Part shown: piece after piece, positions 896 through 21,653 of the stretch
How positions within the stretch are numbered: position 1 is the first letter of the stretch
Layout of the letters: each line of letters starts with the position of its first letter
DNA from: a virus
Lineage: Duplodnaviria; Heunggongvirae; Uroviricota; Caudoviricetes
DNA length: 22,730 bases
Direction: 5' to 3' (one strand)
IMG/VR virus record: IMGVR_UViG_2565956720_000001
Position numbers and translations under genes: made by a program
The notes under the pieces: model-generated
What the model saw: the letters and a program-made list of their open reading frames with translations, nothing else
The model's database searches: none
What the model was told of the DNA's origin: nothing

Positions 896-896
896 T

Positions 897-908
897 GTGA
901 CATGTCAC
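897..908. repeat. 12-bp perfect palindrome GTGACATGTCAC, copy 1
   Basis: Exact 12-mer, self-complementary; identical copies at 19377-19388 and 21642-21653. Here it abuts the antirepressor terminator hairpin. Confidence 0.8.
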
Positions 909-946
909 GATAGTTCCTTTTTGCACATCCCTGTGCCTCCGTTCTG

Positions 947-1891
947 TCAGAAGAACCCTGCCTTGTCATTGATGTACTCTGCGTGAGTCTGGATATCACG
1001 CAGGCATTTGCTCACACCAACGATGTAGCAGAACATGGTGGTCAGCTCCGCCGCCGCGCCCGATACGTCATGCCCGTCGTCCTGCAACTGATTCAGCAGA
1101 TTCATCAGCAATGAGTTCTCCGTCAGGCCGAGAACACCAGACGGCGAGTGAATCAGGCTGCGGTAGCCGGGCTTCAGCGGATAACCATAACATTTTGTCT
1201 GTGTTTTAATTGCCTCACGAAGCGCATCTAACATCTTGACTGCCACTTCATCATTCTCTGATGCAGATCCAGCAGGGAGATACTCCCCTTCAAGCGGAAC
1301 CCGAGCAACAAGAGACAACGCTTCGGCGAATTGATCTTCATCAATTTCTTTGTACGAACAGCCAAAATGAGATTTCAGTGACGACCACATGGTGATCATC
1401 GCCTTAGCCTGTTTTTCTTTTGGCAGAGACTGACCGCGACTCATGACGAGTTGTTTAATGGCTTCCTGCTGTTCAGTGGTTATTTTACCCGGCAACGCCT
1501 TTTTAGCTTTGCGTGGGTTAACCACATGGCCTTTAGTCCAGTACTCGTAGAGCACATCGTCACACTCTTCCTGATACTGGATTACCTTGTCGCGGATTTC
1601 AGGACGGACTTTGTTAGGGCTGATGGTTTGCAACCAGCCAGCAAGTTTGCGAAGTGCCAAACAAATAATCTCACGGCGCTGTTCATCCCCAGGAAGCTGC
1701 ATTGTGATTTTCACAATGCAGGTTTTAAACCGCTGCTTCATTTTCGTAAACTGTGAAGCCCAATCCATACCCATTCCCTCAACGATAGGCTTCATTGGTG
1801 TGTACGGTTCGCCGTTGTGATTGACAACATAAAGTTCTACGCCGTGGAATGGCACGTTGATAGTAGATACCGCTGTTGCTATACTCGTCAT
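947..1891 (-). CDS. ant: Phage antirepressor (Ant-like; P22 antirepressor-type N-terminal domain plus C-terminal domain)
   Basis: 314-aa ORF with ATG at 1891 and TGA at 947-949. N-terminal INVPFHGVELYVVNHNGEPYTPMKPIVEGMGMDW matches the antirepressor N-domain signature as remembered. Sits downstream of an Arc-like gene, as arc-ant does in P22 immI. Confidence 0.85.
   Translation of the reverse strand: MTSIATAVSTINVPFHGVELYVVNHNGEPYTPMKPIVEGMGMDWASQFTKMKQRFKTCIVKITMQLPGDEQRREIICLALRKLAGWLQTISPNKVRPEIRDKVIQYQEECDDVLYEYWTKGHVVNPRKAKKALPGKITTEQQEAIKQLVMSRGQSLPKEKQAKAMITMWSSLKSHFGCSYKEIDEDQFAEALSLVARVPLEGEYLPAGSASENDEVAVKMLDALREAIKTQTKCYGYPLKPGYRSLIHSPSGVLGLTENSLLMNLLNQLQDDGHDVSGAAAELTTMFCYIVGVSKCLRDIQTHAEYINDKAGFF
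1857..1885 (+). promoter_or_regulatory. Candidate promoter for a Sar-like antisense RNA (TTGATA -17 bp- TATACT), inside the 5' end of ant on the opposite strand
   Basis: TTGATA at 1857-1862 and TATACT at 1880-1885 with 17-bp spacer; predicted start about 1892, immediately antisense to the ant ribosome-binding region. Confidence 0.35.
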
Positions 1892-1967
1892 GTCGTTAAT
1901 TCCTATACGTAGTTTTACGATACTGAAGCCCTGACGGTCTGGCCACCGTTGGGCTTCGCTGTTTTAT
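1892..1967 (+). ncRNA. sar: Candidate Sar-like antisense RNA complementary to the ant translation-initiation region (about 75 nt)
   Basis: Promoter at 1857-1885; hairpin GAAGCCC…GGGCTTC (1925-1957, inner stem ACGGT/ACCGT) followed by GCTGTTTTAT on the plus strand only. Same layout as the P22 sar RNA between arc and ant. Inferred, not experimentally supported. Confidence 0.35.
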
Positions 1968-2131
1968 GCCACGCTATTCTTCTCACCAGTGAGTCCATAC
2001 ACTTTCCTCAGCTGATAGATAATCTCTGTATTGAACTTTCGGCATTCTTTTTCGCCATTTCTTTCAATAGCTAACTTCACATCGTCCGGAAAACGAACTC
2101 GTCGTTGACACATCTCTTTTGCTTTTTGCAT
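1964..2131 (-). CDS. arc: Arc-like ribbon-helix-helix repressor (55 aa)
   Basis: Start re-placed at ATG 2131 (AAGGAG 7 nt upstream); the track's longer start has no ribosome-binding site. Product MQKAKEMCQRRVRFPDDVKLAIERNGEKECRKFNTEIIYQLRKVYGLTGEKNSVA follows the Arc pattern (R-x-P-x-x-V…NG…N-x-E-I-Y-Q). Directly upstream of ant on the same strand. Confidence 0.65.
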   Translation of the reverse strand: MQKAKEMCQRRVRFPDDVKLAIERNGEKECRKFNTEIIYQLRKVYGLTGEKNSVA

Positions 2132-2146
2132 TTCATATCTCCTTAG

Positions 2147-2214
2147 CCCCACCGTGGGGCAAAACAATTGTCACACCGTGCGTCATTGATGTCAAGCACA
2201 CGGTGAGGCATACT
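2147..2214. promoter_or_regulatory. Divergent, overlapping promoter/operator region between the arc-like and mnt-like genes
   Basis: Minus strand: TTGACA (reverse complement of 2191-2196), 17 bp, GACAAT, reading toward arc. Plus strand: TTGATG (2186-2191), 17 bp, CATACT (2209-2214), reading toward mnt. Palindrome GCCCCAC-C-GTGGGGC at 2147-2161; half-site CACCGTG at 2151-2157 and 2173-2179, inverted as CACGGTG at 2199-2205. Confidence 0.4.
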
Positions 2215-2251
2215 TCAATCATTGCAAGTAACTCAATATTTGGTGAAGAAC

Positions 2252-2683
2252 ATGAGCAGAGAAGATCCACAACTAAGGATCAGACTTCCCGTTGAAGTAA
2301 AAGAAAAAATAGAAATTTCTGCAAAAGCCAATAAGCGATCAATGAACGCTGAAATAGTACAACGTCTTGACACCAGCTTTCTGAAAGATATTCATGAAGA
2401 TGACGTAATTTCTGCTTATGAAGCAAAAATTATTGCAAACAATGCACGGCATGAAATATCAAATATTATTTTCAAAAGAACCTTTAATGAAATTAATAAG
2501 AAAATAACACTTGGACATACAAGTTTTTATATAAACCTTAATGACCTTGAACTGGAATCACTTGCAGATAATGATTACCAGATCATCTTTGAAAAAACAT
2601 TTAATAAGCTCAATGAACTAGGTTACATCATCTGTGAAAACTCATGGGATGCAGATGGTTTTGGAATTGAAATACCTGAATAG
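2252..2683 (+). CDS. mnt: Mnt-like ribbon-helix-helix repressor with an about 95-aa C-terminal extension of unknown function (143 aa)
   Basis: ATG at 2252 with GGTGA 5-6 nt upstream (the track start at 2222 is TTG). N-terminus MSREDPQLRIRLPVEVKEKIEISAKANKRSMNAEIVQRL aligns with remembered P22 Mnt (MARDDPHFNFRMPMEVREKLKFRAEANGRSMNSELLQIV). Roughly one-third G+C by eye. Confidence 0.8.
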   Translation: MSREDPQLRIRLPVEVKEKIEISAKANKRSMNAEIVQRLDTSFLKDIHEDDVISAYEAKIIANNARHEISNIIFKRTFNEINKKITLGHTSFYINLNDLELESLADNDYQIIFEKTFNKLNELGYIICENSWDADGFGIEIPE

Positions 2684-2694
2684 GAAGAACAAAA

Positions 2695-2720
2695 GGCGTG
2701 TACATATTACACGTCTTTAA
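2695..2720 (+). terminator. Candidate intrinsic terminator after the mnt-like gene
   Basis: GGCGTGTA-CATAT-TACACGTC hairpin followed by TTTAA; moderate T-tract. Confidence 0.35.
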
Positions 2721-2773
2721 TACAATTGAAAAACGCCACATTACTGATGTATGTTACAACAAGGAGCGATATT

Positions 2774-3337
2774 TTGAAAACCATATCTATATTAAAGGTT
2801 GCATTAGGCGTCGCTATTATTTTGACTCTCTCAATATTGTTTTATTTTTACCACAAAAAAACAGCTATTGCTCTTGATGGTCACGCGGCAAACTCATTTT
2901 TCTCAGAGTACATAGTGCCGCTATCAGGAAGCGGTATAACAAATAAATATACTGACTATGACATCAAATATGGAATTGATGATGGGGAGACTATTGTATT
3001 ACATGTAATCATTAAAAACCTAATGACAGTAAATAAAAATACAGACTTCAACGATAAAAATACAATACATCACAACAACAGCAAAACATTAATTTCTTAT
3101 AGTAGCAACATCTATACGGATAAATACCTAAAATACATCTCAGAAGATACAATAAAAGCAACCAGCGAAAAGTTAAAAAACATATATTGTGCATCCGGCA
3201 GTTTTCACAAATTATCGCCGCAAGAGCGTTTATTCTACGAAGCAAGAAAACAACGTAAGTCAATAATATTACATTATTATGCTGATTCAGGGGAGTCACT
3301 CATATTTAATATTGGGGTTTCCCCTGAATCATGCTAA
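2774..3337 (+). CDS. AT-rich signal-anchored/secreted protein of unknown function in the sieA-equivalent position (candidate superinfection-exclusion protein)
   Basis: ORF to TAA at 3335-3337. Best-supported start is TTG 2774, with AAGGAG (2761-2766) 7 nt upstream; alternatives are ATG 2747 (no ribosome-binding site) and the track's TTG 2726. N-terminus KTISILKVALGVAIILTLSILFYFYHKK is a signal anchor. Asn/Lys/Tyr-rich, low G+C. Confidence 0.6.
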   Translation: MKTISILKVALGVAIILTLSILFYFYHKKTAIALDGHAANSFFSEYIVPLSGSGITNKYTDYDIKYGIDDGETIVLHVIIKNLMTVNKNTDFNDKNTIHHNNSKTLISYSSNIYTDKYLKYISEDTIKATSEKLKNIYCASGSFHKLSPQERLFYEARKQRKSIILHYYADSGESLIFNIGVSPESC

Positions 3338-3348
3338 AGGCGTTTAAC

Positions 3349-6300
3349 TCACCGCATCACCGGATCCACCTGGTTTATTAGTGGCGCAATCCAGAACAGG
3401 TTATTGCCTGGTATCAGGGTTCGGACATTATGCACAATACGATCACCGGCATCACCATTCAACACTCCTGCGGTCACATCAATGATGCTATCCGCAAGAC
3501 CAAATGACGGTCCGAATAGAGATCCTACGAATCCACGACTGGCATACCTAGACTGTGTGCCAGTGCCAAATAAAGCCCCCAGCCCAACAGCACCACCAGT
3601 AGCCTTTTCAGCCATGTTGTTATATTCCATCAATGGCCCAAGAATACCGGATCTATCTATACCCTCAAGCACCAGCTTCTCTGGTGACCAGTCAACATTT
3701 TTCCCTTTCGATGCTTCTTTAAGCGCATAGACCAGTGAGCCAAGAGCAATCTGAAATGCAGTGCCATAATAAAATTGCGCAGTTCCTTCCTGTAGCCCAC
3801 CAAGTAGCGCACGGTTGTATGAAGCCGTTGTGAATGATTTAAACTGAAATATCGTTCGCCCCATTGGAGTACTCGCCCATAAAGGTGTGTCACCAATACC
3901 GGGGGTGATGATAGTGTTATTAACGTCTTTCAGAACCGCTGACTGGAATACTCCGGCAACGTACTGATCGTCCCATTTATCAAAGTTACCAATGTGCCAT
4001 CCATCAATTACCTCACCATGTTTCTCGAACTCACTGCGAATACGCGCAGCCATATTGTCGTTGATACCGAGTTTTGCCATGCGACGTGCAGAAAACGCAC
4101 CAGACAAAATACCGTCTGACGTGAGCATTCCGTTCATGGATTTGTTTATGTCATTAAATCGATCCATGAGTGTCAGCTTGCCGAAGGCATCAGTAATTCG
4201 CTCCATTCCTGCTTCGACTGCTGTTGTCCTGGAAGAACTGTCAACAAGATCACCAATTGCACGAGAACGTGAATGTAGTACAGTTTCCAATCCAATCCCC
4301 ATCTTCAACATCTCTTCTTTGCTGGCCTTAAATGCCGGTGATTGGGATATCTGAGAAGCATAGCCTTTCATGGTGTTACGGAAACCATTAACCATAACCC
4401 CTCTGGCCAGATCTGGAATAGCTGATACTGTCATTCCACCGAGTTTGGTCGTGAAGTTCACATCCCGCAGAAAAGCGCCAGCACGAACAAAAAACGAAGA
4501 CGGGTCATCAGGCATACCATATGTACCAACAAGACGATCGCGTAATGCTGTTATGTCTCTGAGATCATTTGCTCTTGATTTTGAAAGTCTGGACTGTTCT
4601 TTCCGTAATTCCTTTTCGTACTTTCGCATTAATGAATCGAGTTTACCCTGAGGAACAACTTCACCATTGCTCTCATAACGTGCTTTCAGATTTGCCACAC
4701 TTTCGTCATATTTCGCCTTTATTTTTTCAGGCACTTCCCGTAACAGACTGTCATATTCGTCTTCAATTAATTGCAGACGCTCAGCCATAGTTCGTTTGCC
4801 AAATGTTCTCGTCAACTCAATTTCTGCTGCCGCTTCACGGATATGACGTTGCAGCACGTAATTCACATCACTTTCGAGATAATCCCTGATAAGACTATCA
4901 GGCACATTTAATGTTCTTTCTTTCGTACTACCTGCGGCTTTTACAGAAAATACGCTGACAAAATCCTGTGGAACCTTAGCACCAGTAATTTTATTAATTA
5001 CGATATCCGCTGCAATTTCAGCATCCTCAGGATCCAGTGTTTTATTGCCTCTCGACCACCAGTCAACCAAAATACGTCGAAATTTATCGCGTTCACTGAT
5101 TATTTTTCCAACTTTATATATACGTGGGAAATAGCTTGCCTGACCTAATGCTTTCAGTTCTTCATCTGGCGGCAATAAACCAAGCTTTTGCATTTCAACT
5201 TTCACCCGATTTAATACAGTTCGCATCGCCTGCGCCGTTTCCTGAACAACAGGATTAGCATGAACATCACCGCTTCGCATCGCATTCCCAACCTGCTGAC
5301 GAAATGAATCAAAACTCATGTCACCACCATCAGCTTTATACTTTGCGTATGCCTGTTTATTTCCGACAACAACTGCAGCTTCTTCACGCTGCCATCCACG
5401 TGTACGGGTTTCTACAGCTATCGGTGTTTCAATCCCCCTTTCATTTCCTTTAAGGGTGAAATTATTTTCGGCTAACTCCAGCGTTGTTTTTCGCACTGTC
5501 TTTGACGGAGACTCCATTAACCTTGTCAAAGGAGTAAGATAGCTCCCTGCTTTCCATGCAGCCTTTCCAACCACCCCACCAGAAACAGGGGTTAAATCAT
5601 CCAGAGTCGCTGTATCAATTTTCATAGCACCAACACTACCACCATCGGAAAGCGAAGCGGCAGCCCTGTCAGTCGCTGATGTAATGCTCATATTATCAAG
5701 AGCATCAGCAACCTCACGTGTGGCTGCAGCCCGGACGGATGGCGAAAGCGCAACACCAGCACTGGCAAACACGCCGCTCATCATCGCACCCGCTGCAACG
5801 TGAGCGGCACTTTCACCCCATGAGCGTGTTATTTGCTGATTATTCAGTACAACCTCGCTTAATGCAGTACCGGCAGCACCAATCGCAATCTGTGAGCCAA
5901 TACGCGCCAGTGCCCCTCCTTGAGCACCGGGGATAAACATTGACGCAACAGTAACCGGATCCATTCCCGCAGCAATACTGGCAAGGGTTCCAACTACGCC
6001 AGCATCAGACAATAAACGTCTGTCTTCATTTTCATCATCTATCTGCTGCTTAATCCACGCCGTTTCCTCTGGCGATCGGGAATCTGCAAATTTCGCCCCC
6101 CAGTATTCATAACCGTGCAACTCATTTTTATCAGCATATGGGTTATAACCTTCGACCGGTTCAAACTGTCTGGCTGGGCGGAAAAAACCAGCCAGAATAT
6201 TGTTCTGTCGCATTGCAGCCCCCCATACGGAAGGCTCAGGTGGCAATGGCTCAGGATTAGCCCCTTCCGGAAGGGCAACATCAAACCCAGTTTGTTCCGG

Positions 6301-6363
6301 CAAAACATTACCTGACGGGATCAGTCCGTTATTAAGATCTTCAGCTTGTGCATAAACTGGCAT
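3349..6363 (-). CDS. Large internal virion / DNA-ejection protein (T7 gp16-position analogue, 1004 aa)
   Basis: Long ORF; its ATG (6363) overlaps the TAA of the upstream gene (TAATG). Last gene of the tubular-protein/core-protein series; Gly/Ala-rich N-terminal region. Confidence 0.75.
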   Translation of the reverse strand: MPVYAQAEDLNNGLIPSGNVLPEQTGFDVALPEGANPEPLPPEPSVWGAAMRQNNILAGFFRPARQFEPVEGYNPYADKNELHGYEYWGAKFADSRSPEETAWIKQQIDDENEDRRLLSDAGVVGTLASIAAGMDPVTVASMFIPGAQGGALARIGSQIAIGAAGTALSEVVLNNQQITRSWGESAAHVAAGAMMSGVFASAGVALSPSVRAAATREVADALDNMSITSATDRAAASLSDGGSVGAMKIDTATLDDLTPVSGGVVGKAAWKAGSYLTPLTRLMESPSKTVRKTTLELAENNFTLKGNERGIETPIAVETRTRGWQREEAAVVVGNKQAYAKYKADGGDMSFDSFRQQVGNAMRSGDVHANPVVQETAQAMRTVLNRVKVEMQKLGLLPPDEELKALGQASYFPRIYKVGKIISERDKFRRILVDWWSRGNKTLDPEDAEIAADIVINKITGAKVPQDFVSVFSVKAAGSTKERTLNVPDSLIRDYLESDVNYVLQRHIREAAAEIELTRTFGKRTMAERLQLIEDEYDSLLREVPEKIKAKYDESVANLKARYESNGEVVPQGKLDSLMRKYEKELRKEQSRLSKSRANDLRDITALRDRLVGTYGMPDDPSSFFVRAGAFLRDVNFTTKLGGMTVSAIPDLARGVMVNGFRNTMKGYASQISQSPAFKASKEEMLKMGIGLETVLHSRSRAIGDLVDSSSRTTAVEAGMERITDAFGKLTLMDRFNDINKSMNGMLTSDGILSGAFSARRMAKLGINDNMAARIRSEFEKHGEVIDGWHIGNFDKWDDQYVAGVFQSAVLKDVNNTIITPGIGDTPLWASTPMGRTIFQFKSFTTASYNRALLGGLQEGTAQFYYGTAFQIALGSLVYALKEASKGKNVDWSPEKLVLEGIDRSGILGPLMEYNNMAEKATGGAVGLGALFGTGTQSRYASRGFVGSLFGPSFGLADSIIDVTAGVLNGDAGDRIVHNVRTLIPGNNLFWIAPLINQVDPVMR

Positions 6364-10119: not shown

Positions 10120-12590
10120 CAGAATCCCCCAACAGTAAGGCGAGGAATAACGGCAAGAACAGACAGCGGCAACGGGTCAAGCTGACGGATTTTTACACGT
10201 CCGTTTTTGCCCCAGTTACTGTCCAGTTTCACTTCTACTTTTCCGGTAGCGTCATCAACAGGATCATCGTAGAACTCGAATTCACGCTGTGGATATTCGT
10301 ACCATTTACCGCCGGGCGTAGTCGCCCAGATGCCGCGACTGGCATTCACAACCAGAGTAACGGAGGGGATCACCTGTTTTTTGTCCAGCAGCGTTTCCTG
10401 TCCGTTAATGTTGATATCCAGTGTTTCGAATTCAGCAGTTATTGGCAGGCCGATGTGCACTACAGCCCCCGGAGATTCCAGCGTGACGGCACCTCCGGAA
10501 ACCACTTTCTGTGGTTCCACGTTCGCATCAGAGAGAATGTTTACGGTCTGGCCTTCAAGATGAGACAGGCCTCCAAATGTCCGGCGCGCCATCTGCCAGT
10601 TCGTGGTGGCCACATTCCTGAGGGATGGCGGGACGTTCCTGTTAGCACGAACCACTACAGCGGTATTACTGGTTACAGAAATAATGTCGCAACGTAATTC
10701 TTTTGACACCTCATCGCCAGTATCAGGATCAGTTCCGGTATAAGGGAACTGTAGTTGCGCGCCGACATCACTACTGGTGAAGTACGCACCACCAGAAACA
10801 CTGATTGTATATTCCGCGCGGTAATCCCATTCGCCAGAACCACCAGTGATGATCATCGTTCTGTCAGACGTATTTCTTCCATCATAGCTAAGGCCAGAAT
10901 CAACAAAGAAAGCATCTTCATCGCTGGTAAATAAACGGCTGGACAGTCGCTCGATGTATCTCACTGTTTGCCCGTTAACGGTTCGGTTAACGACGAAATA
11001 CACCGCATCTTCATTGCCTTCGCTGATACTGCATGTGCTTTCATATTTTCCGGTACTGGATTGTGGTGCCCATGCAAAAACCTGCTGATCACGCAAATAG
11101 GTCATCACCAGTAATTTACCGTCATCACGGATGCAGAAGGCGCTGGAGTAAGGGACTATTGAGAAGCACCAGTCAACAATGCTGTGCTTCTGAAAAAGAT
11201 GATTGGCAAGGATAGTAAGGTCGTTCCCCTGATAGCCGTCAACATCGAATGAGTAGGCGAGATCACGGACAACACTGCCTTTCTCCTGGACGAACAGAGC
11301 AATATTCGCCACGGCAATTGGTGGGACATTGCTCGAGCCATTTGATCCCTGAGAGCTGAATGCAAATGATGATGGGGTAAGCACTTTGTTCTGGTCGCCA
11401 GTGATGACGTACTCACCTCCGGAAGTCAGCGCCACCAGCGAACCAACATCAATCAGGTGACGGATCTCATTAACCTGACGCCCGGCATAGGTGTAGATAA
11501 TTCTGTCGTCATCCTGCGTAGGATTGCTTTTGCCAAAATCCTTATAATCCCCAGTACGGCTGGCCCAGATAGTCTGAGGGAACGCAGTCGATGCGGCGAA
11601 GTAAAGGCGTTGTTGATAATAAACAACAGTGCCAGGATAACCGTTAATACTGTTCCAGGCATATTTAGCCCATTTATAGCTGGCATTATCCTCGCCAACT
11701 ACCTGCGAAGGGATATAGGAAATCACCTCGGCAGTTGCAGTAGTTCCATTTGCAGCAGAGATACGGGCAATGCCAAAACCACTGTGCAGATACTCCCACT
11801 CAATGCCGGTATCATCATCACCGGATCCGCCCCAGCCATCCCATGATGTGCCTTCTGTATGCGAAGGGCGCAAAGTACCTGTTTTGCCTGCTGTAACGGC
11901 GCGATAGTAGTTACTGTCTGCACGGCGAATATCGCCAATCGACGTACTCTTACTGGTTTCCCATACCGGCACTGAATCCACTGCAGGCTGTTCCAGATAG
12001 AACAATTTGCCTACCTGCTCCGCGCCAAAAATAGAGGCGCTTGCCGTTAACGTAATTGTCCCGGTGCTGGCGCTGGCATAAACCGTCACTGACTCGTCAA
12101 TATTGATATCTTCAAATGGCCCGTTCTTCGTTACCACATCAACCAGTTGCCAGTTGTCATGCGCATAGCGGCGCAACTCTTTCGGCGGGTATGCCGGATG
12201 AACCAGCGTAAGCACGTCTGCGCTTTGCGTGAATTTAATTCGGAACAGATCGGCTTCAGTATATGGCGTGGCAATTTCATAAATAACATTGCTGCTGTTC
12301 AGCACCAACGCACCATCTTTGATAACGCGCATGTACTGGTGTCCGAACTCCAGAGCATAAGTCTGAACCGTCGAGAACTGGAACGGGATCAGGCGGCATT
12401 TCCGATTTGGGTATTTGGCGGCACCGACAAAACGCGTACCAGGTCGATTCTCAACGCCGCCATACTGCCGCACGATAAAGTTATCGCACTTGCGCAATGC
12501 CACCTGGTACTTCGCCATGTCGATACGTCCGTACAACGACGGTCCAATCTCACCACCGGCAAAGCTGGGCTGGATCCAACTGATAGCCAT
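10119..12590 (-). CDS. Tail tubular protein B-like (nozzle; T7 gp12 analogue, 823 aa)
   Basis: ATG at 12590 overlaps the upstream TGA. N-terminus MAISWIQPSFAGGEIGPSL resembles remembered T7 gp12 (MALISQSIKNLKGGISQQP); size and position match. Confidence 0.8.
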   Translation of the reverse strand: MAISWIQPSFAGGEIGPSLYGRIDMAKYQVALRKCDNFIVRQYGGVENRPGTRFVGAAKYPNRKCRLIPFQFSTVQTYALEFGHQYMRVIKDGALVLNSSNVIYEIATPYTEADLFRIKFTQSADVLTLVHPAYPPKELRRYAHDNWQLVDVVTKNGPFEDINIDESVTVYASASTGTITLTASASIFGAEQVGKLFYLEQPAVDSVPVWETSKSTSIGDIRRADSNYYRAVTAGKTGTLRPSHTEGTSWDGWGGSGDDDTGIEWEYLHSGFGIARISAANGTTATAEVISYIPSQVVGEDNASYKWAKYAWNSINGYPGTVVYYQQRLYFAASTAFPQTIWASRTGDYKDFGKSNPTQDDDRIIYTYAGRQVNEIRHLIDVGSLVALTSGGEYVITGDQNKVLTPSSFAFSSQGSNGSSNVPPIAVANIALFVQEKGSVVRDLAYSFDVDGYQGNDLTILANHLFQKHSIVDWCFSIVPYSSAFCIRDDGKLLVMTYLRDQQVFAWAPQSSTGKYESTCSISEGNEDAVYFVVNRTVNGQTVRYIERLSSRLFTSDEDAFFVDSGLSYDGRNTSDRTMIITGGSGEWDYRAEYTISVSGGAYFTSSDVGAQLQFPYTGTDPDTGDEVSKELRCDIISVTSNTAVVVRANRNVPPSLRNVATTNWQMARRTFGGLSHLEGQTVNILSDANVEPQKVVSGGAVTLESPGAVVHIGLPITAEFETLDININGQETLLDKKQVIPSVTLVVNASRGIWATTPGGKWYEYPQREFEFYDDPVDDATGKVEVKLDSNWGKNGRVKIRQLDPLPLSVLAVIPRLTVGGF

Positions 12591-16100: not shown

Positions 16101-16102
16101 GA

Positions 16103-16399
16103 TCACTCCTGTTCACTGGCCTCTTTGGCCATCTTCAAATACTGTTCAGGGCAATGCGCCATAACGCGCTGAAACAGTTCCAGCGCCAGATTGCGTTGCC
16201 CCTCATTAAATGCCATTGCCATAGCGTCCATCGGTGAGATAGCGGAAAACACACGGCCTTTCTCCAGCACCGACCAGACAACGCGACGCCCCTGTTCACT
16301 GCTCATGACAAAGCGAATGTCATCAATTTCACGCTGTGCCATGTCACGTTGCTTACGGGCGTTTTCTTCTTTCAGTTGATCATCTTCGTAATCTGTCAT
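16103..16399 (-). CDS. Hypothetical head-assembly protein (98 aa)
   Basis: ATG at 16399; its TGA (16105-16103) lies 2 nt before the scaffold ATG; acidic, helical composition. Confidence 0.65.
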   Translation of the reverse strand: MTDYEDDQLKEENARKQRDMAQREIDDIRFVMSSEQGRRVVWSVLEKGRVFSAISPMDAMAMAFNEGQRNLALELFQRVMAHCPEQYLKMAKEASEQE

Positions 16400-16404
16400 T
16401 GTGA

Positions 16405-18075
16405 TTACCCACCCTGACCACTAACTGCATTCGCCATAGCTGACAAAACACTCGGATCCGAAGTTTTAGCTTCGCTTAGCGTCTTGGCGCCCTGTGCCGC
16501 CGCCATTCCCATCGCCATCATTTGTTGCTGCTGTTGCTGCTGTGCCCGTTGCTGGCGAGCCTGCTCAACCTGTTCCTGCGGAACAATGACGGTTGGAGAC
16601 ACTCCGGACATATCAGCGAATGCATCGATCGCCTGATCAACATTGAGTTTGTCGAGAGCTTCTGGTTTCGCTTGCGCAAGTTGACCAATGAAGTTGACCG
16701 TAGACGCCAGACTGGACAGGCCGATAGACTTCTGCGCCTGAGCCATGACGGAAATGTATTCGACCTTCAGGGGCATACCTTCCATCGCGTCAGGCGGTGG
16801 CGGCAGCATGTTTTTACGCACCATCATCGAGAAAGCGCGGTCAATGAGAGGATTAAGACATTCGTCGTTCAGACGCTCCAGAACCGGCCCCAACATCAGA
16901 AGTTTTTCTTCTTTCATTTCGATCACCGCTTCAACAGGCATCGAGCGGGTATTGATGTTCTGCAACATCATGAACAGATCGACAAAGTAGGCGCTGTTAA
17001 TGATTTGACGAGTGTCCTGAATGTCTGCCACCAAATCTGCTGTACTGGGGTTAACCAGATAAGCAGGCCTGAAGCCATCCTGACCAGTAATCTGATCGAT
17101 ATACGTGATGTCGCCAGGAAGAAGGGAGGCGCGCTGATTCTTGAGGGAAGTCGGAGCAACCATCGGCGGATTGGTGGCTTTATCAATCAACTGCGACTTG
17201 CGCTTCTGGAGAAGCTGCAATGCCTTAACAGGTCCAAGCGCCAGCATACCCGGGCATGATGATCCATAAACATCTTCGCCGTTAACTTCCCAGCGCGGAG
17301 CCATAATTGGAAACTCATCGAATCCGGACTCACGCAACAACTTGTCGTTATCGCCACCAACCTCGTAATAAACCGATTTGAATGGCTTGTTCTTGCTATC
17401 CAGCTTCGATGTATCGCGGTCAATGTTCGGGTAAACCGAATGCATCACTTCAATCCACTTCTCGTAGGTGCCGCTTTCCCACATGCTTTTTACGGATTCG
17501 CTGACGTTATTTAGCCCGAACTCCTGAACAAGCTGACGAACAGTCATAGAGAACTTGCGAAAACAGGTGTCCACACTGCCACGAGGTGAGTTAGCTAGGT
17601 AGTAACTGCCTATCGGGAATGGCATTGTGCGAATGATGTCCTCGTCATCCTCCAGCACTGCCATTGCACCAGTGCTGTATGTGCCGAGGCTTCCGTATAA
17701 CTGCGGCAGAGACTGATAGAGATTCGACTTATTGAACATATCGTTCATGCGGTTCTGCACCGCCTCAAGCCACAACTTAACAGGGCCATAATCCATCATT
17801 TCAGGATCTGGCGTAGCCAGGCGAAACCACGGACGCGCGGGGCTTGTGATGCCTGACATCATGCCGCTGGCGAGAGTGCGCGCCGCCATAGTCCCGGTCG
17901 AATCAATAATGCGTGTATTGCGTCGATCGTTACGGTTGACCTCAGAAGTCAGAAAGCGGGAACCACGTGGGTTGATGTAATCACTCAACTCGCGCCAGTG
18001 CGGCTCGAACGACTGACGCTCGCTTTCAAGTTGTGCGAACTGTTTGTTCAATCGCTCTTTAGTTGTTTCCGCCAT
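16405..18075 (-). CDS. Portal (head-to-tail connector) protein, T7 gp8-like (556 aa)
   Basis: ATG at 18075 with GGAG upstream. C-terminal tail …QQRAQQQQQQQMMAMGMAAAQGA… resembles the remembered T7 gp8 C-terminus (…QKMAQQSMQMGMDNGAAALAQGMAAQ…); size and position fit. Confidence 0.85.
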   Translation of the reverse strand: MAETTKERLNKQFAQLESERQSFEPHWRELSDYINPRGSRFLTSEVNRNDRRNTRIIDSTGTMAARTLASGMMSGITSPARPWFRLATPDPEMMDYGPVKLWLEAVQNRMNDMFNKSNLYQSLPQLYGSLGTYSTGAMAVLEDDEDIIRTMPFPIGSYYLANSPRGSVDTCFRKFSMTVRQLVQEFGLNNVSESVKSMWESGTYEKWIEVMHSVYPNIDRDTSKLDSKNKPFKSVYYEVGGDNDKLLRESGFDEFPIMAPRWEVNGEDVYGSSCPGMLALGPVKALQLLQKRKSQLIDKATNPPMVAPTSLKNQRASLLPGDITYIDQITGQDGFRPAYLVNPSTADLVADIQDTRQIINSAYFVDLFMMLQNINTRSMPVEAVIEMKEEKLLMLGPVLERLNDECLNPLIDRAFSMMVRKNMLPPPPDAMEGMPLKVEYISVMAQAQKSIGLSSLASTVNFIGQLAQAKPEALDKLNVDQAIDAFADMSGVSPTVIVPQEQVEQARQQRAQQQQQQQMMAMGMAAAQGAKTLSEAKTSDPSVLSAMANAVSGQGG

Positions 18076-18089
18076 TTCAATGACTCCGG

Positions 18090-18296
18090 TTACTGACCAA
18101 GCAGCGTTTTACCGCTGGTCTTAGCGGTTGATGTGTCGCCCTGAGAACCGGTAAGCAGCGTAGAACTACGACCAGCAGCAGCGCGACGGCGACGAGTTTC
18201 TTCGTCGCGGGCATCAACAACGGCGGCATCCTGCTCCTGTGGTGCTGCCTGAACTTCTGGTGTTGCAGGCACTGATGGTGAGCTACCCATGCACAT
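18090..18296 (-). CDS. Small hypothetical protein (68 aa, low-complexity, likely disordered) upstream of the portal gene
   Basis: ATG at 18296 preceded by GGAGTCATTGA, the same 11-mer that precedes the portal ATG. Preferred over the overlapping 79-aa frame (18077..18316), which is Leu/His/Arg-rich and has no ribosome-binding site. Confidence 0.5.
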   Translation of the reverse strand: MCMGSSPSVPATPEVQAAPQEQDAAVVDARDEETRRRRAAAGRSSTLLTGSQGDTSTAKTSGKTLLGQ

Positions 18297-18386
18297 ATCA
18301 ATGACTCCGTACGCAATTAAATTATTACCAATTTAACCACATATGATTTATTTATCGTAGATAGTTGACATTTAACGCACAAATTA

Positions 18387-18401
18387 TTACCTTTCAGGTA
18401 A
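18387..18401. promoter_or_regulatory. Palindrome TTACC-N5-GGTAA (copy 2), about 20 bp after a TTGACA hexamer
   Basis: TTACC (18387-18391), tttca, GGTAA (18397-18401); TTGACA at 18365-18370. The direct repeat AAATTATTACC also occurs at 18319-18329. Confidence 0.4.
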
Positions 18402-18725
18402 CCAAAGAGTTCATTCCGGTTACTAACCTGACTGGCTTGTCGTTAAATTGAACAGGTGGAGTGAGCTTTTATTTTGAGCAGTACGGCGTATGGCACATGC
18501 GCCGATAGCGGTCTGGATACGTTTAAGGGGCACCCTCCCTTGCTCGGGCAAACGAACCAGGTAGCCGGAATGTGCAAGTCACCGTTGGTAGGATAGCGGA
18601 TTCAGGGACTCACCATCCTGGCGATTCGGTGTGACGCCTCGGAAGAGACGAGGGTACAACGATGAGAGCATTTATGGAGCCGCGACAAAGTGTGGCGCCT
18701 TAACAGGCTAAGTGCTCTCAGCGTT

Positions 18726-18802
18726 GTGGCATTAGCTCAGCTGGACAGAGCAACCGCCTTCTAAGCGGTTGGTCGCAGGTTCGAATCCTGCATGCCACGC
18801 CA
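18726..18802 (+). tRNA. tRNA-Arg (anticodon UCU, reads AGA), with encoded CCA
   Basis: Manually folded cloverleaf: acceptor GTGGCAT/ATGCCAC, D-stem GCTC/GAGC, anticodon stem ACCGC/GCGGT with loop CTTCTAA (anticodon TCT), variable loop TGGTC, T-arm GCAGG-TTCGAAT-CCTGC, discriminator G plus CCA. Confidence 0.9.
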
Positions 18803-18846
18803 GAATCACGCCTAAGGACCGTGATGCCAGAAGTTCCAGGGGCTTG

Positions 18847-18888
18847 GCGGTGATGGTTTCCCTTGAAGGACTATCACCGCCCTTTTTA
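18847..18888 (+). terminator. Intrinsic terminator downstream of the tRNA
   Basis: 9-bp stem GGCGGTGAT / ATCACCGCC followed by CTTTTTA. Confidence 0.5.
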
Positions 18889-18965
18889 CAGCAGGACGCC
18901 ATTGCGATGACTTCATGCTGTAAACCAGTACAGCCACGGAAGGCATAACTCATTGCTTCCAGTTC

Positions 18966-18990
18966 GCCCGGTTCGCCGGGCATTTTTTTA
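18966..18990 (+). terminator. Second intrinsic terminator (or attenuator) abutting the ribosome-binding site of the 123-aa ORF
   Basis: GCCCGG-TTCG-CCGGGC hairpin followed by ATTTTTTTA; the AGGTGAG ribosome-binding site of the next ORF starts at the end of the T-tract. Confidence 0.55.
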
Positions 18991-19000
18991 AGGTGAGATT

Positions 19001-19372
19001 ATGAACGACCAGCAAATCGAAAAAGAAATCGTTGAGAAAGGCAAAACTGCTCCTCGCGTTACGCCAGACCATATCGAAAGCATTATTGCTCAGGAGGCAT
19101 ATTTCACAGCAGAGGATGGTGCCTTTGGCAAAGCCATAAAAGCGAAACATACTGGCGGAGAGGTAAACTACCAGCCGCACGAATCACTTTCTCTGCTGAC
19201 GTTCTGCGTCCTGGTGCTGCGCAACGGCTTCACCGTCACCGGAGAGAGCGCCTGTGCAAGCCCGGAAAACTTTGATGCAGAAATTGGTCGGAAGATTGCC
19301 CGGCAGAATGCTGTAAACAAAATCTGGATGCTTGAAGGTTACTTGCTGAAGCAGAAGTTAAGCGAGCAATAA
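19001..19372 (+). CDS. Hypothetical protein (123 aa) carried with the tRNA on the strand opposite the late genes
   Basis: ATG at 19001 with AGGTGA upstream; coherent composition; followed by the GTGACATGTCAC palindrome and a terminator. No family assigned. Confidence 0.7.
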   Translation: MNDQQIEKEIVEKGKTAPRVTPDHIESIIAQEAYFTAEDGAFGKAIKAKHTGGEVNYQPHESLSLLTFCVLVLRNGFTVTGESACASPENFDAEIGRKIARQNAVNKIWMLEGYLLKQKLSEQ

Positions 19373-19376
19373 CACC

Positions 19377-19388
19377 GTGACATGTCAC
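19377..19388. repeat. 12-bp perfect palindrome GTGACATGTCAC, copy 2
   Basis: Exact copy, 4 nt after the stop of the 123-aa ORF and 4 nt before the terminator hairpin. Confidence 0.8.
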
Positions 19389-19392
19389 AAAC

Positions 19393-19420
19393 AGCCAGCC
19401 TATGAGCTGGCTTTGTTTTA
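19393..19420 (+). terminator. Intrinsic terminator between the convergent 123-aa ORF and the large terminase gene (possibly bidirectional)
   Basis: AGCCAGC-CTATGA-GCTGGCT hairpin followed by TTGTTTTA on the plus strand; an A/T-rich flank is also present on the other side. Confidence 0.55.
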
Positions 19421-19462
19421 TCCTCATCAGAGGATATCAACGACATTATCCCCACCAGCGGA

Positions 19463-20938
19463 TTAAGCATAAGGGTCATAATCCGTTATGGCCCTTCCCT
19501 GCTGGCTTTGCTGTCCTGGTATATTTATGCGTTTCGAGACCGGGAACGCAAACGTCAGCAGTAGCGCATCGCCTTTACCAGGAGAACGCCCAAGTCGCTC
19601 TTTGATATCTTCCTTCGGTTCGATAACGATTTTACCGTCCACTCGAACTTTGTACTCTGCTGCCGACAGGTCGTCCGCTGTTTCCTGGTCATCAAGCATG
19701 CCGCCCAGCCTCAGCCATGTCTTGCATGAATTGAACATCTCCCCACGCTTGTTGAGCATCTGCGGGTCAGTAGACGCGCCACCGAACGGAACAAGTTGCC
19801 ATGTACGACCCCATCCGTCACCGATTGACTTCAGACCGGTTCCGTAACCGAAGTCGATGAACACCGCGTCAGCCTGATACTGGTCTTCAAAGTCAGCGAT
19901 ACGCTTCGCCATAATCAGATCGTCGGTAGTCTTGTTGCCAGTCCACAGCACCTTACTGTGTAGCCCCTGCCGCAGGTATATCACCGCGTCATCAACGCCT
20001 GAATATGCCGGGTCAACACCGATTATCACCGGAGCATGCGCCACCTGCGCAGCGGTTACCACCCGTTTCATTGCCTCATCAGTAAGACCGGTAGGGATAA
20101 ACTGCAATTCAGATGCATCAGGGAATATGCCGCGCACACGGATTTTAACGAAGTCGCTGTCTTCCCCGTAGTCATCAACCCATTTCTGCAACTGCTGTTT
20201 GTTAGTGCCTTCCACCGTTCGGCTGTCAATCTGCGCAGTTTTCCAGCGGTGTTTATATTTGCGGAAACATTCGCGAAAACGCCCGGTGTTACGTGTAGGG
20301 TTTCCGAACGCCACCCAGATAATCTCAGTGTCTTCGTCCGTAAGCGCACCCTCAGCAACTTCCCACACCAGATCCGCAATGTTCGACGCTTCATCGAATA
20401 CCACGATGATGCGTTTGCGCTCGTTGTGTAGTCCGGCGAATGCCTCAGTGTTGTGCTCAGACCAGGGTATTGCGTCAGCCCGCCACCGCTTGTCGTGCCC
20501 AGGGTCATTGCTGTACATCGCAGTAGCGGTACAGGTAAACCAGTCTTTCGTGATAGCAAGGTTCGACCACTTGATAATTTCCGGCCAGGTCTTCGTTCGT
20601 AGCTGGTTGTCGGTGTTGGCGGTCACCACGATCTTACAATCCTCGCAAGTGGACATGCCCCAGTTGATCAGCATTGAGATGAATGCGGATTTACCAATAC
20701 CGTGACCAGAAGCGCGTGCCAGCATAAGCGGCTGATAGCGCGTCTCTGGATTCTGCAGGTGATCACGTATCTCTCGGAACGCATCAGCCTGCCACTGACG
20801 TGGGCCGGTAGCATGTGCCAGTTCAGTCCCCTCTTCCCCCCACGGGAACGCATAGAGGGCATAGCCAAGCGGATCGTGAGTGAACCCTGCAATATCCTCG
20901 ATCAACTGCTCTTCAGGAGATAACGCTGTATCTGTCAC
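19463..20938 (-). CDS. Terminase large subunit (491 aa)
   Basis: Long ORF directly after the small-subunit gene, with GTG start overlapping its stop (GTGA). Size and neighbourhood are typical of terminase large subunits; no motif was verified by search. Confidence 0.85.
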   Translation of the reverse strand: MTDTALSPEEQLIEDIAGFTHDPLGYALYAFPWGEEGTELAHATGPRQWQADAFREIRDHLQNPETRYQPLMLARASGHGIGKSAFISMLINWGMSTCEDCKIVVTANTDNQLRTKTWPEIIKWSNLAITKDWFTCTATAMYSNDPGHDKRWRADAIPWSEHNTEAFAGLHNERKRIIVVFDEASNIADLVWEVAEGALTDEDTEIIWVAFGNPTRNTGRFRECFRKYKHRWKTAQIDSRTVEGTNKQQLQKWVDDYGEDSDFVKIRVRGIFPDASELQFIPTGLTDEAMKRVVTAAQVAHAPVIIGVDPAYSGVDDAVIYLRQGLHSKVLWTGNKTTDDLIMAKRIADFEDQYQADAVFIDFGYGTGLKSIGDGWGRTWQLVPFGGASTDPQMLNKRGEMFNSCKTWLRLGGMLDDQETADDLSAAEYKVRVDGKIVIEPKEDIKERLGRSPGKGDALLLTFAFPVSKRINIPGQQSQQGRAITDYDPYA

Positions 20939-21531
20939 TGATTACCATCCTGACGTTCTTTGAGTCGCTTCCTGGCTGCCGCTATGCGATCAGCAATTGT
21001 CACATTCACATTAACATCCAGGCGTTCTTTGAATGCGTTGACGTCGACGTGCTTACCAATCAGTTCGAGGTTCTTCACCTTGTCAGGCCATTTAATTTTT
21101 TTGAGGATTGTCTCTATCGAATCCTCGTTCATGTTCATGATGGTCGATGACAGATCAAAGCCACTAAGCGTAGTGCGCCAGATTTTCGGCCACTCGCGGA
21201 TTGGCTTAAGGCTCCCATCGTCGTTGAGGATATCAATCACGTCCATCTGGTCGATCTCCACCAGGCGCATGAGAACGTAATCGGCACTGACGCGCATTCG
21301 TTTGTTGCGCTCCTCCATCAACTCGGCAATCCGTTTTTGAATGCGTTCATCGCGCATCATGACACTGGCTTTAACTGCCGCTGTATTTGGGGAGAATCCT
21401 GCGTTAATCGCTGCCTGAGTCTGGTTTTCAGGCGTTTTGATGTATGACTGGCAATAAGCCTCCTGCATTGCGGTTAGTGGCTTAAATTGCGTTGATTTGC
21501 GTTTATAGGTTTTAGGTTCAGCAGGCATCAT
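20935..21531 (-). CDS. Terminase small subunit (about 198 aa)
   Basis: Start placed at ATG 21531 (tandem ATG ATG preceded by AGGGTGG). The track's longer ORF begins with TTG at 21609 and would include a terminator hairpin. Basic, helical N-terminus; immediately precedes and overlaps the large subunit gene. Confidence 0.75.
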   Translation of the reverse strand: MMPAEPKTYKRKSTQFKPLTAMQEAYCQSYIKTPENQTQAAINAGFSPNTAAVKASVMMRDERIQKRIAELMEERNKRMRVSADYVLMRLVEIDQMDVIDILNDDGSLKPIREWPKIWRTTLSGFDLSSTIMNMNEDSIETILKKIKWPDKVKNLELIGKHVDVNAFKERLDVNVNVTIADRIAAARKRLKERQDGNQ

Positions 21532-21548
21532 AACCACCCTGGTAATTG

Positions 21549-21563
21549 TTACCGTTGTGGTAA
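21549..21563. promoter_or_regulatory. Palindrome TTACC-N5-GGTAA (copy 3), with an extra GGTAA half-site at 21541-21545, just upstream of the small terminase start
   Basis: GGTAA (21541-21545), ttg, TTACC (21549-21553), gttgt, GGTAA (21559-21563); 18 bp from the terS ATG. Could be an operator or a terminase-recognition element. Confidence 0.4.
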
Positions 21564-21573
21564 TAGTACCATG

Positions 21574-21600
21574 CAAAATAAAGCCGCCATAGTTGGCGGC
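21574..21600 (-). terminator. Intrinsic terminator between the accessory operon and the terminase genes (minus strand)
   Basis: On the minus strand: GCCGCC-AACTAT-GGCGGC hairpin followed by TTTATTTTG. Confidence 0.45.
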
Positions 21601-21641
21601 AGTATTCAAAACCCATCAAATTCATCATGCATAATCTACTC

Positions 21642-21653
21642 GTGACATGTCAC
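21642..21653. repeat. 12-bp perfect palindrome GTGACATGTCAC, copy 3
   Basis: Exact copy overlapping the TGA stop of the 21650..21988 ORF, about 40 bp upstream of a terminator hairpin on the minus strand. Confidence 0.8.

Follow-up and report, generated by a model that had tools for sequence, protein, structure and literature searches.

A strictly conserved 12-bp palindrome at gene ends in epsilon15-like prophages, a candidate operator of the phage protein encoded beside it

The window analyzed here, a 22,730-nucleotide stretch of an epsilon15/phiV10-like prophage, contains three exact copies of the 12-bp palindrome GTGACATGTCAC, one of which overlaps the stop codon of a small Cys-rich ORF (Table 1). 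The palindrome is real and strictly conserved, and its linkage to the gene for this Cys-rich protein extends across unrelated phages. The best explanation, which we consider probable though far from certain, is that GTGACATGTCAC is a double-stranded-DNA operator of the product of the ORF at 21650-21997, whose most likely action would be that of a roadblock at the ends of transcription units. Binding of the palindrome by the family protein is suggested by sequence comparison; a roadblock or boundary action at gene ends is proposed more tentatively.

Three copies are beyond chance, as a sequence-only reading of this stretch had claimed: the uniform expectation is 0.0014 (about 0.001), and none of 100 dinucleotide-preserving shuffles contained a copy. 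A single copy with one mismatch, GTGCCATGTCAC, is located at 16336, within a coding ORF. The same reading had placed each copy between a gene end and an intrinsic terminator and had described the flanks as not conserved, and it was right on both points – a G+C-rich hairpin with a T run on the transcribed strand is found beside each copy, and the DNA flanking the three copies is unrelated. Copy 3 is 41 nt from terminator A, copy 1 is 38 nt past the ant stop codon, and the hairpin of terminator B also faces terL.

Table 1. Positions in the window of the three palindrome copies and of the genes and signals around them
Feature	Position	Strand	Remarks
Palindrome copy 3 (site A)	21642..21653	.	Overlaps TGA stop of the candidate binding protein's gene, end of early-right operon
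Candidate binding protein gene, Cys-rich ORF	21650..21997	-	TGA stop 21652-21650 inside copy 3
Intrinsic terminator A	21573..21600	-	Hairpin 21600-21583 + T run; closes early-right operon before terS
Putative terS promoter	21530..21571	-	Conserved extended -10 TGnTA(C/G)TAT at 21571-21563; presumed promoter
Two Rep-operator-like sites in putative terS promoter	21564-21548, 21546-21530	-	Operator consensus from epsilon15 annotation
Small terminase gene (terS)	20935..21528	-	PF03592; start by analogy with TL-2011b gp21
Large terminase gene (terL)	19463..20938	-	Transcription unit ends at terminator B
Terminator B	19393..19420	+	Hairpin 19393-19412, A and T runs on both sides; between terL and opposed cargo gene
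Palindrome copy 2 (site B)	19377..19388	.	4 nt from cargo stop, 4 nt from hairpin
Cargo (moron) gene, 123-aa ORF	19001..19372	+	PF13876 (N4 gp49 / Sf6 gp66 family)
Palindrome copy 1 (site C)	897..908	.	Abuts terminator C, end of arc-ant unit
Intrinsic terminator C	869..896	-	Hairpin 896-879 + T run; annotated as terminator in phiV10
Antirepressor gene ant	947..1891	-	P22_AR_N, PF10547

A genome-wide count in relatives gave exactly three copies per ca. 40-kb genome in epsilon15, phiV10 and Tyrion, at the same three syntenic places and with diverged flanks (one of the phiV10 copies is split across the ends of the record), and two copies in TL-2011b. The genomes that share the three syntenic copies are only 77–81% identical. 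Terminator A is kept in relatives. The equivalent of site C in phiV10 and epsilon15 is a palindrome-plus-terminator that closes the late operon, a unit confined to epsilon15-like phages. Of 39 unique related contexts of site B, with 13 hairpin variants among them, 35 have the exact 12-mer; the terminator stems beside it vary by compensatory pairs, while the palindrome is invariant. The 4-nt gap to the reversed stop codon is also kept in 35 of the 39, despite differing cargo genes. Some relatives that are viable carry a mutated site B or have lost it (TL-2011b, L228, L241-244 and L257). In epsilon15-like phages the motif is a simple annotation marker of unit boundaries.

The ORF that ends in copy 3 encodes a protein of 112–115 aa (112 aa from the likely true start in the window) of the family of epsilon15 gp49, phiV10 gp55 and N15 gp46 (phrog_536). 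The family comprises 209 clusters at 50% identity and ranges over epsilon15-like, N15-like, P2-like and other temperate phages of enterobacteria, Vibrio and Aeromonas; N15 and AH07 encode a separate Q-type late activator in addition to the family gene. The protein has a basic, arginine-rich N-terminal helix, a ribbon-helix-helix-like core and a C-terminal Cys-rich, zinc-ribbon-like part. An AlphaFold model with a pLDDT of 92.9 (an earlier model from 20 close sequences had a pLDDT of 60 and was set aside) shows a predicted ribbon-helix-helix fold, that of duplex-DNA binders: a beta-strand followed by two helices, of the kind that pairs into a dimer through an antiparallel ribbon. Pfam, NCBIfam and PDB sequences gave no match, to a curated ribbon-helix-helix family or otherwise, even at E ≤ 10, and 20 members had no Pfam homology to Q (of the lambda, 82 or 21 types), Ogr/Delta, Mor/C, or other late regulators or antiterminators at the same threshold. 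Foldseek searches against the PDB and viral models gave nothing significant, the PADLOC defence models gave no matches, and the PHROG label of the family is 'transcriptional regulator' only. A few longer relatives were considered as domain fusions that might hint at function, and were rejected as merged ORFs (Ead/Ea22, terL fragments).

The general form of the motif is GTGAC-NN-GTCAC, with two invariant GTGAC half-sites. It accompanies the family gene in unrelated phages (P2-like, N15-like, ZF40 and AH07) and in Vibrio, Yersinia and Proteus prophages. Among phages with a family homologue, there are three copies in ZF40 and three in N15 (with the centre TG), and copies are also found in AH07, a Yersinia P2-like phage and Vibrio K233. 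In three surveys of loci holding the gene, the motif was present in 78 of 80, 74 of 80 and 44 of 46, while nine composition-matched palindromes and spacers of 0, 1, 3 and 4 bases gave 0–8 matches in total in the same surveys; this linkage is partly automatic because one copy overlaps the gene end, and its P-values are inflated because the surveyed loci are phylogenetically related. Some loci of the family lack a motif within 10 kb. The PF13876 cargo gene occurs with and without the family gene. All 39 loci with it (704 kb) contained the motif, with 73 matches, and the 41 loci without it (735 kb) contained two matches, against 0.7 expected.

Across the family the sites are found mostly at stop codons. 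Ninety-eight of 150 sites (65%) are within 7 nt of a stop codon, compared to 9% of random positions, and in 74 of 150 unique sites the TGA stop of an ORF is inside the first half-site. Very often, in diverse loci, this is the family gene's own stop codon, at an offset of −1 that holds across clades with different downstream DNA. Some sites are inside cII-like genes. A terminator-like hairpin is found within 60 nt of 55 of the 151 unique sites (36%; 12–18% in controls), and among terminator-near sites the palindrome is upstream in 34 and downstream in 18, often 0–4 nt away. Stop-codon proximity is the stronger family rule. The suggestion that a dimeric phage protein binds the palindrome and acts at terminators has fared accordingly: action at terminators fits the epsilon15-like genus (3 of 3 copies) but not the family as a whole. 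Binding by a dimeric protein has gained comparative support, with the copy-3 gene product as the candidate, from the co-occurrence, the predicted fold and the symmetry of the sites. The centre is palindromic in 87% of sites, giving perfect two-fold symmetry; the arms are invariant, and the two central bases differ from clade to clade in step with the predicted beta-strand (KLELxLD with AT, RRDWVLE with TG, and NEIRARLE with GC). No mention of the palindrome was found in the searchable literature, a scope that does not include the Kropinski 2007 epsilon15 genome paper.

The motif and the protein resemble the MatP-matS system in several respects. The half-sites GTGAC and GTCAC are the same, and in both cases a few sites are scattered over the replicon and are not in promoters. 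MatP is a ribbon-helix-helix dimer in which a helical part N-terminal to the ribbon makes additional DNA contacts (PMC12756933), and a similar architecture is predicted for the phage protein. However, matS is a 13-bp sequence, GTGAC-RNY-GTCAC, with a 3-base spacer (PMC6907758), while the phage site has 12 bp and a 2-base centre, and the 13-bp form with a 3-base spacer had no matches in the family loci. MatP has a four-helix bundle and a coiled-coil C-terminus; the phage protein has one N-terminal helix and a Cys-rich, zinc-ribbon-like C-terminus, is phage-encoded, and has its sites at gene ends, including its own stop codon. Alignment with E. coli MatP by hhalign gave a probability of 0.4% (below 1%), and PF06303 and PF17414 were not matched; the E. 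coli sequence was checked against PDB 4d8j, and a search for MatP homologues gave near-identical sequences only and no profile.

Other known systems share parts of this arrangement. LacI blocks its own transcription at O3, an operator at the 3' end of its gene, which results in truncated transcripts whose products are SsrA-tagged (PMC3711431), and a protein bound to DNA can stop RNA polymerase before it reaches a stop codon (PMC13584721). A bound phage protein would likewise halt RNA polymerase before the stop codon. LacI, however, is a helix-turn-helix tetramer that loops to O1, whereas the phage roadblock is a proposal, and the phage site is a single 12-mer overlapping the stop codon, with further copies at other gene ends. 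The ribbon-helix-helix repressors Arc and Mnt of the P22 immI region have operators of 17–21 bp that overlap promoters upstream of the regulated genes, while the phage sites have 12 bp and are downstream of genes, and the protein has an extra zinc-ribbon-like part. Lambda Q and tR' present the same order of last early-operon gene, DNA site, terminator and late genes, but there is no homology to Q, Q-bearing phages also carry the family, and there are three sites per genome, most of them not at promoters. KorB of IncP plasmids and C1 of P1 also use a single short, near-invariant operator repeated at several functionally distinct places in the replicon, though these sites mostly overlap or flank promoters, and those of the phage are at stop codons and terminators.

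Several other identities for the site were tried and rejected. It is not an operator of the CI-like Rep – the annotated operators of epsilon15 read ATTACC-N5-GGTAAT, which is another motif and is present in the window too. A genome end, cos or pac site was considered, as the phiV10 record starts inside copy 3; this only reflects where the depositors cut the circle, past the stop codon of the last early gene, and the motif occurs in cos and headful phages alike. A sigma-70 promoter with GTGACA as the −35 element has one weak match only, at copy 3, and is impossible at copies 1 and 2 because a terminator hairpin occupies the −10 position. For a class I activator site of the terS promoter, the distances in the window and in epsilon15 disagree by 16 nt.

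Four other explanations of the palindrome have to be weighed against an operator of the adjacent protein. An antitermination site, at which this protein would engage RNA polymerase in the manner of lambda Q or RfaH and cause terminators to be read through (for example by early transcription into terS), seems unlikely. The order of regulator, site, 25–41 nt, terminator and terS does resemble Q-qut-tR', the excess of palindromes upstream of nearby terminators would suit such a role, and in epsilon15 a GTGACA-N17-TAAATT sequence could be a promoter reading into the hairpin. Its counterpart in the window has no good −10, and a promoter is impossible at sites B and C. Against such a role, the window and epsilon15 differ by 16 nt in the distance from palindrome to terminator, late transcription meets the terminator of site B before the palindrome, and the majority of family sites are not close to a terminator. 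Beyond terminator A there is a conserved extended −10 with Rep operators, so that terS is apparently transcribed from a promoter of its own. The missing Pfam matches to Q, Ogr and other antiterminator families, the separate Q-type activators of N15 and AH07, and the predicted duplex-DNA-binding fold also argue against antitermination. That the palindrome acts in RNA at the 3' ends of transcripts, whether as a hairpin, as a processing site such as one for RNase III, or as the place where the protein binds mRNA, is highly improbable, and the idea of a self-complementary RNA element in the sequence-only reading found no support. The palindrome is in transcribed DNA just after stop codons, the N-terminal helix of the protein is arginine-rich, and RNase III sites are annotated elsewhere in the epsilon15 genome. 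But the hairpin that the palindrome could form has 4 bp and a 4-nt loop, with −1.2 kcal/mol and a z of about 0 relative to shuffles, and does not compete with the terminators. Its arms never covary, whereas the adjoining true hairpins do, the variable part is the would-be loop, an Rfam search of the sites gave no matches, and the predicted ribbon-helix-helix fold is of the duplex-DNA-binding type.

The palindrome is also the exact junction between conserved and variable DNA, and homology between relatives breaks there at all three sites. At least five unrelated clusters of cargo genes have their ends exactly 4 nt away, an additional reversed gene has been inserted directly behind site A in some relatives, and the far edge of the TL-2011b cargo cassette bears a degenerate copy. 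These observations favor a recombination anchor, a module boundary for cargo exchange at which the protein would be irrelevant or accessory. We regard this as decidedly unlikely as the main function: no recombinase is associated with the palindrome, 12 bp is short for homologous exchange, and junctions are expected beside any selectively fixed element. Site C's palindrome-plus-terminator is restricted to epsilon15-like phages, and the site on the family gene's stop codon and those in cII-like genes would be unexplained. Nor does the palindrome belong to a mobile cassette, because the same cargo gene lacks it in phages without the family gene; in the 41 PF13876 loci of this kind it does not travel with the cargo as an integron attC-like or PeSL-like element would. 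The earlier proposal of a recombination boundary therefore stands as to position but not as to transfer with the cargo, and a boundary role is at most secondary. The last alternative is that a host factor binds the palindrome for chromosome or nucleoid organization of the prophage, and that the phage protein is unrelated. The taxonomic range of MatP overlaps the Enterobacterales, Vibrio and Aeromonas hosts of the motif-bearing phages. MatP is the factor that first suggests itself, since matS, GTGACRNYGTCAC, has identical half-sites (PMC6907758; PMC3603311), and one true 13-mer occurs in Vibrio phage K233. Against this, the spacer is strictly 2 bases, with no 13-mers in ca. 3.5 Mb of family loci; the motif is missing from phages that share these hosts but do not have the family gene; and true matS is avoided in the prophages of Escherichia and Salmonella (PMC3603311). 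A host factor would also not explain the fixed position on the family gene's stop codon, and we consider this explanation very unlikely.

If the palindrome is an operator of the family protein, a symmetric protein dimer would read the two invariant GTGAC half-sites, and the beta-ribbon would face the two clade-variable central bases, much as MatP reads matS. In this prophage the sites close three units – the early-right operon, terS-terL with the convergent cargo gene, and the ant/late unit – and the likeliest action of the bound protein would be that of a physical roadblock to RNA polymerase at these boundaries. At its own gene the roadblock might limit the synthesis of the protein as LacI does at O3, leaving transcripts without a stop codon; elsewhere it might reinforce termination or insulate adjacent or convergent units from each other. 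A roadblock seems superfluous where a good intrinsic terminator follows directly, and the operator reading does not account for the exact 4-nt spacing between site B and the cargo stop. A bolder version, which we offer as a doubtful speculation, is that the family serves temperate phages as a dedicated DNA-bound boundary factor, a MatP-like ribbon-helix-helix protein. At its 12-bp sites next to terminators and over stop codons, this factor would arrest RNA polymerase, and perhaps other DNA translocases as well, where transcription units end. Roadblocks at 3' ends, and not promoters, would then control how much of the protein is made and how strongly cargo, antirepressor and cII genes are expressed, and the site would be deliberately one base short of matS and so orthogonal to MatP.

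These results give a concrete, testable function to a widespread family of phage proteins without a characterized member, and they define GTGAC-NN-GTCAC as the probable DNA site of the family. The placement of this site is unusual – on the family gene's own stop codon and at other gene ends and terminators, not at promoters. Should the protein indeed work at 3' ends as a roadblock or insulator, it would exemplify a rarely documented mode of phage gene control and module insulation, and would account for cargo genes being slotted exactly beside the site. The near-identity to the matS of the host raises the question of a common origin with, or a deliberate avoidance of, the host MatP system.

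The window is 97% identical to the Escherichia phages TL-2011b and phiV10 and ca. 77–81% identical to the Salmonella phage epsilon15 and the Enterobacter phage Tyrion (genus Uetakevirus), and its late genes lie on the minus strand. Within its 22,730 bases the 12-mer GTGACATGTCAC has three exact copies, found in 0 of 100 dinucleotide-preserving shuffles and expected 0.0014 times under uniform composition. The sequence-only reading had placed each copy at a transcript end next to a terminator, and its positions and contexts held when gene ends and terminators were checked. Allowing two mismatches adds a single site, GTGCCATGTCAC. This site is probably coding conservation, because it is shared with phiV10 and TL-2011b and missing from epsilon15.

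Coordinates of the palindrome copies and neighboring features in the window
Feature	Position (strand)	Context
Copy 1 (site C)	897-908	After ant (947-1891, -, P22_AR_N); abuts minus-strand terminator hairpin 896-879
Copy 2 (site B)	19377-19388	4 nt past stop of PF13876 cargo ORF (19001-19372, +); 4 nt ahead of hairpin 19393-19412
Hairpin at site B	19393-19412	Flanked by A and T runs on either side; faces terL (19463-20938, -)
Copy 3 (site A)	21642-21653	Holds TGA stop of family gene (21650-21997, -); terminator 21600-21583 lies 41 nt on; upstream of terS
GTGCCATGTCAC	16336-16347	One-mismatch copy inside small structural-region ORF (16103-16399, -)
Candidate terS promoter, extended -10-like TGGTACTAT	21563-21571 (-)	Directly past terminator A
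Rep-type operators	21530-21546; 21548-21564	Ahead of terS
Rep-type operator-like site	18386-18402	Preceding portal block
Rep-type operator-like site	242-258	Near window start
tRNA-Arg (anticodon TCT)	18726-18802 (+)	Variable region between terL and portal block, adjoining cargo gene
P22 immI-like module	1893-1960 (+); 1964-2167 (-); 947-1891 (-)	sar antisense RNA (Rfam RF00262, 45 bits) between Arc-like ORF and ant

Four relatives were compared as whole genomes. Epsilon15, phiV10 (where one copy is split across the arbitrary start of the record) and Tyrion carry three exact copies apiece and no more, in the same three places. At site A the palindrome is on the stop codon that ends the last early gene, with a terminator and terS beyond it; site B adjoins the terminator between terL and an oppositely oriented cargo gene; site C adjoins the terminator closing the late operon (gp18 or gp21) or, in the window, the arc-ant unit. 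TL-2011b retains sites A and C; its site B palindrome has given way to another cargo cassette, which has a terminator of its own. The flanking DNA varies from genome to genome and, as the initial reading had noted, from copy to copy; the 12-mer is constant. Degenerate copies are also present: GTGACGTATCAC in TL-2011b (locus L001:14217), at the far edge of the replacement cassette, exactly where homology to the window resumes, and GTGACATGGCAT in epsilon15 (L003:26618), on the stop codon of Rz, the spanin gene that closes the lysis cassette.

Homologues of the protein encoded by the ORF ending at copy 3 were found by tblastn in unrelated temperate phages, all of which have GTGAC-NN-GTCAC. Pectobacterium myovirus ZF40 (66% identity) has three exact copies, one of them 3 nt past the homologue's stop; Pantoea AH07 (59%) has a single exact copy and, on the stop codon of its homologue, GTGACCTGTCAC; N15 (gp46, 37%) has GTGACTGGTCAC three times, once on the gp46 stop codon; a Yersinia P2-like phage (38%) has two copies 33 bp apart, one exact and one with a mismatch; and Vibrio K233 (33%) has GTGACACGTCAC twice, once 20 nt before terS. 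Further homologues are in Klebsiella and Aeromonas phages. The motif was present in 78 of 80 close viral loci (131 hits), 74 of 80 distant viral loci (83 hits) and 44 of 46 loci from different bacterial species (64 hits), with roughly one hit expected by chance per set. Nine composition-matched palindromes and spacers of 0, 1, 3 or 4 bases gave 0–8 hits in total. The PF13876 cargo gene is a natural control, as it is present at 74–99% identity in another phage type. In 41 PF13876 loci without the family gene (735 kb) there were two motif hits, one in a truncated epsilon15-like locus, and the gene is followed by its own terminator with no palindrome. All 39 PF13876 loci with the family gene (704 kb) were positive, with 73 hits (Fisher P = 8e-21, inflated because the loci are related). 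By these sequence comparisons, the motif is therefore tied to the family gene rather than to host or cargo.

The family protein of the window has 112–115 residues and belongs to phrog_536, labeled "transcriptional regulator"; it had no sequence match in Pfam, NCBIfam, PADLOC or PDB. The family is a small one: among 1.8 billion proteins, it has 209 representatives at 50% clustering, almost all stand-alone and of 100–135 residues; apparent domain fusions proved to be merged ORFs. Two cysteines, C82 and C85, are invariant and C102 almost is; conservation of C43 and C94/95 is seen in closer sets. ParD, TacA3-DNA, AmrZ-DNA, Arc and MetJ are listed beside the family protein; Foldseek returned nothing significant. 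MatP, which binds DNA through a central ribbon-helix-helix with an N-terminal helical bundle (PMC12756933), recognizes matS, GTGACRNYGTCAC (PMC6907758), whose half-sites are identical to those of the palindrome but whose center is 3 bases. No sequence homology to the verified MatP sequence was detectable, and the 13-bp form was absent from the family loci surveyed. The family protein is thus filed as a ribbon-helix-helix protein that is MatP-like in site recognition but not a member of the MatP family. Beside its 12-mers, Vibrio phage K233 (L009:6763) carries a single 13-mer in agreement with the matS consensus, GTGACACCGTCAC.

In most clades one copy begins one base ahead of the TGA stop of the family gene (xxG TGA C NN GTCAC), whether the downstream DNA is a terminator and terS, an excisionase gene, a LexA-box promoter or another site; in N15 a ribosome-binding site is 1 nt from this copy. 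The TGA stop of an ORF falls within the first half-site at 74 of 150 unique sites, and another 24 sites are 1–7 nt past a stop codon – 65% at or near a stop, compared to 9% of random positions. A terminator-like hairpin lies within 60 nt of 55 of 151 sites (12.5% of random positions, 18% of long-ORF ends), with the palindrome mostly just upstream (34 vs 18 sites) and often 0–4 nt away. The center is AT in 108 and GC in 38 of 168 sites, and 87% are perfect palindromes. The center follows the clade and the predicted beta-strand (KLELxLD with AT, RRDWVLE with TG, NEIRARLE with GC), a correspondence that is only suggestive since there are three clades.

Two alternative locations recur. The exact palindrome is within cII-like genes (codons R/C-D-M-S-H/Q) of ZF40 and of Proteus, Providencia, Morganella and Xenorhabdus prophages (L005:7622; L189, L190, L197-L200, L204, L205). 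P2-like contigs have arrays of 2–3 full or partial sites at ca. 33-bp spacing (L092:10858-10933; also L090-L110, L115, L126-L129, L143, L146), between the portal/terminase operon terminator and a G/C-rich run that we take to resemble a P2-type cos. In Citrobacter, Pseudocitrobacter, Kluyvera and Erwinia prophages, the palindrome at the stop of the family gene has a good sigma-70 promoter within 6–20 nt after it, and a LexA box (TACTGT-N8-ACAGTA) overlaps this promoter (L170, L171, L175, L177, at about 10340-10420).

Despite the shared half-sites, host MatP is argued against as the binding protein by the different half-site spacing and by control phages of the same hosts that do not have the motif; true matS is avoided by Escherichia and Salmonella prophages (PMC3603311). 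The sequence-only reading had also offered an RNA-level or RNase III-type element, which does not agree with the folding energy, the absence of covariation or the fold of the family protein. The hairpin takes 13 forms across 39 unique site-B-type contexts, with compensatory changes of CCAGC/GCTGG to CCCGC/GCGGG among them, while the 12-mer is exact in 35; it is therefore structure that is kept in the hairpins and sequence in the palindrome. In 35 of the 39, exactly 4 nt separate the palindrome from the reversed cargo stop codon (window 19373-19392; loci L010-L089, L162-L186, L216-L295), a distance shared by at least five unrelated clusters of cargo genes, though the 4 nt themselves vary; a footprint of 4+12+4 bp is one possible explanation. 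The same pattern, with homology breakpoints exactly at the palindrome, fits a recombination anchor. That part of the earlier suggestion of a module boundary stands, but, judged by the PF13876 control loci, the palindrome is not carried along with the cargo. The remaining suggestion, a dimeric phage protein, agrees best with a symmetric, sequence-constrained 12-mer of strict half-site spacing, linked to one gene whose product has a duplex-DNA-binding fold. A dimer of the family protein probably binds the two-fold symmetric palindrome.

What the bound dimer would do is a more tentative matter. Loading of a Q-like or RfaH-like antiterminator would fit how the genes are ordered at site A and the position of palindromes upstream of terminators, but not the variable spacing, the orientation of site B, the separate terS promoter, the lack of homology to antiterminators, or the true Q genes that co-occur in N15 and AH07. 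A roadblock to RNA polymerase, or a boundary between units, is favored, though we hold it as possible rather than probable, because the sites are at gene ends and not promoters, and because the window's copies mark three boundaries: early operon/terS unit, terL/convergent cargo gene, and ant or late/convergent genes. It is favored also because terS seems to be served by a promoter of its own past terminator A, with TGnTA(C/G)TAT at that position in relatives from five genera. With this promoter, and with Rep-type sites (ATTACC-N5-GGTAAT, the epsilon15 annotation for its CI-like repressor) at terS and the portal block, the late blocks look like separate units needing insulation, and the placement of these sites suggests direct repression of the late blocks. 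Finally, a dimer on the family gene's own stop codon would halt RNA polymerase ahead of the stop, as LacI does at O3, where autoregulation acts via truncated, SsrA-tagged products (PMC3711431); a further paper (PMC13584721) describes a DNA-bound block ahead of a stop codon.

Neither the 12-mer nor the protein family was mentioned in the literature searched, a set that did not include the epsilon15 genome paper. Ribbon-helix-helix proteins with palindromic operators are an already known kind of system; what is new is the family, its site, the placement of that site on stop codons and next to terminators, and its resemblance to a matS one base short.
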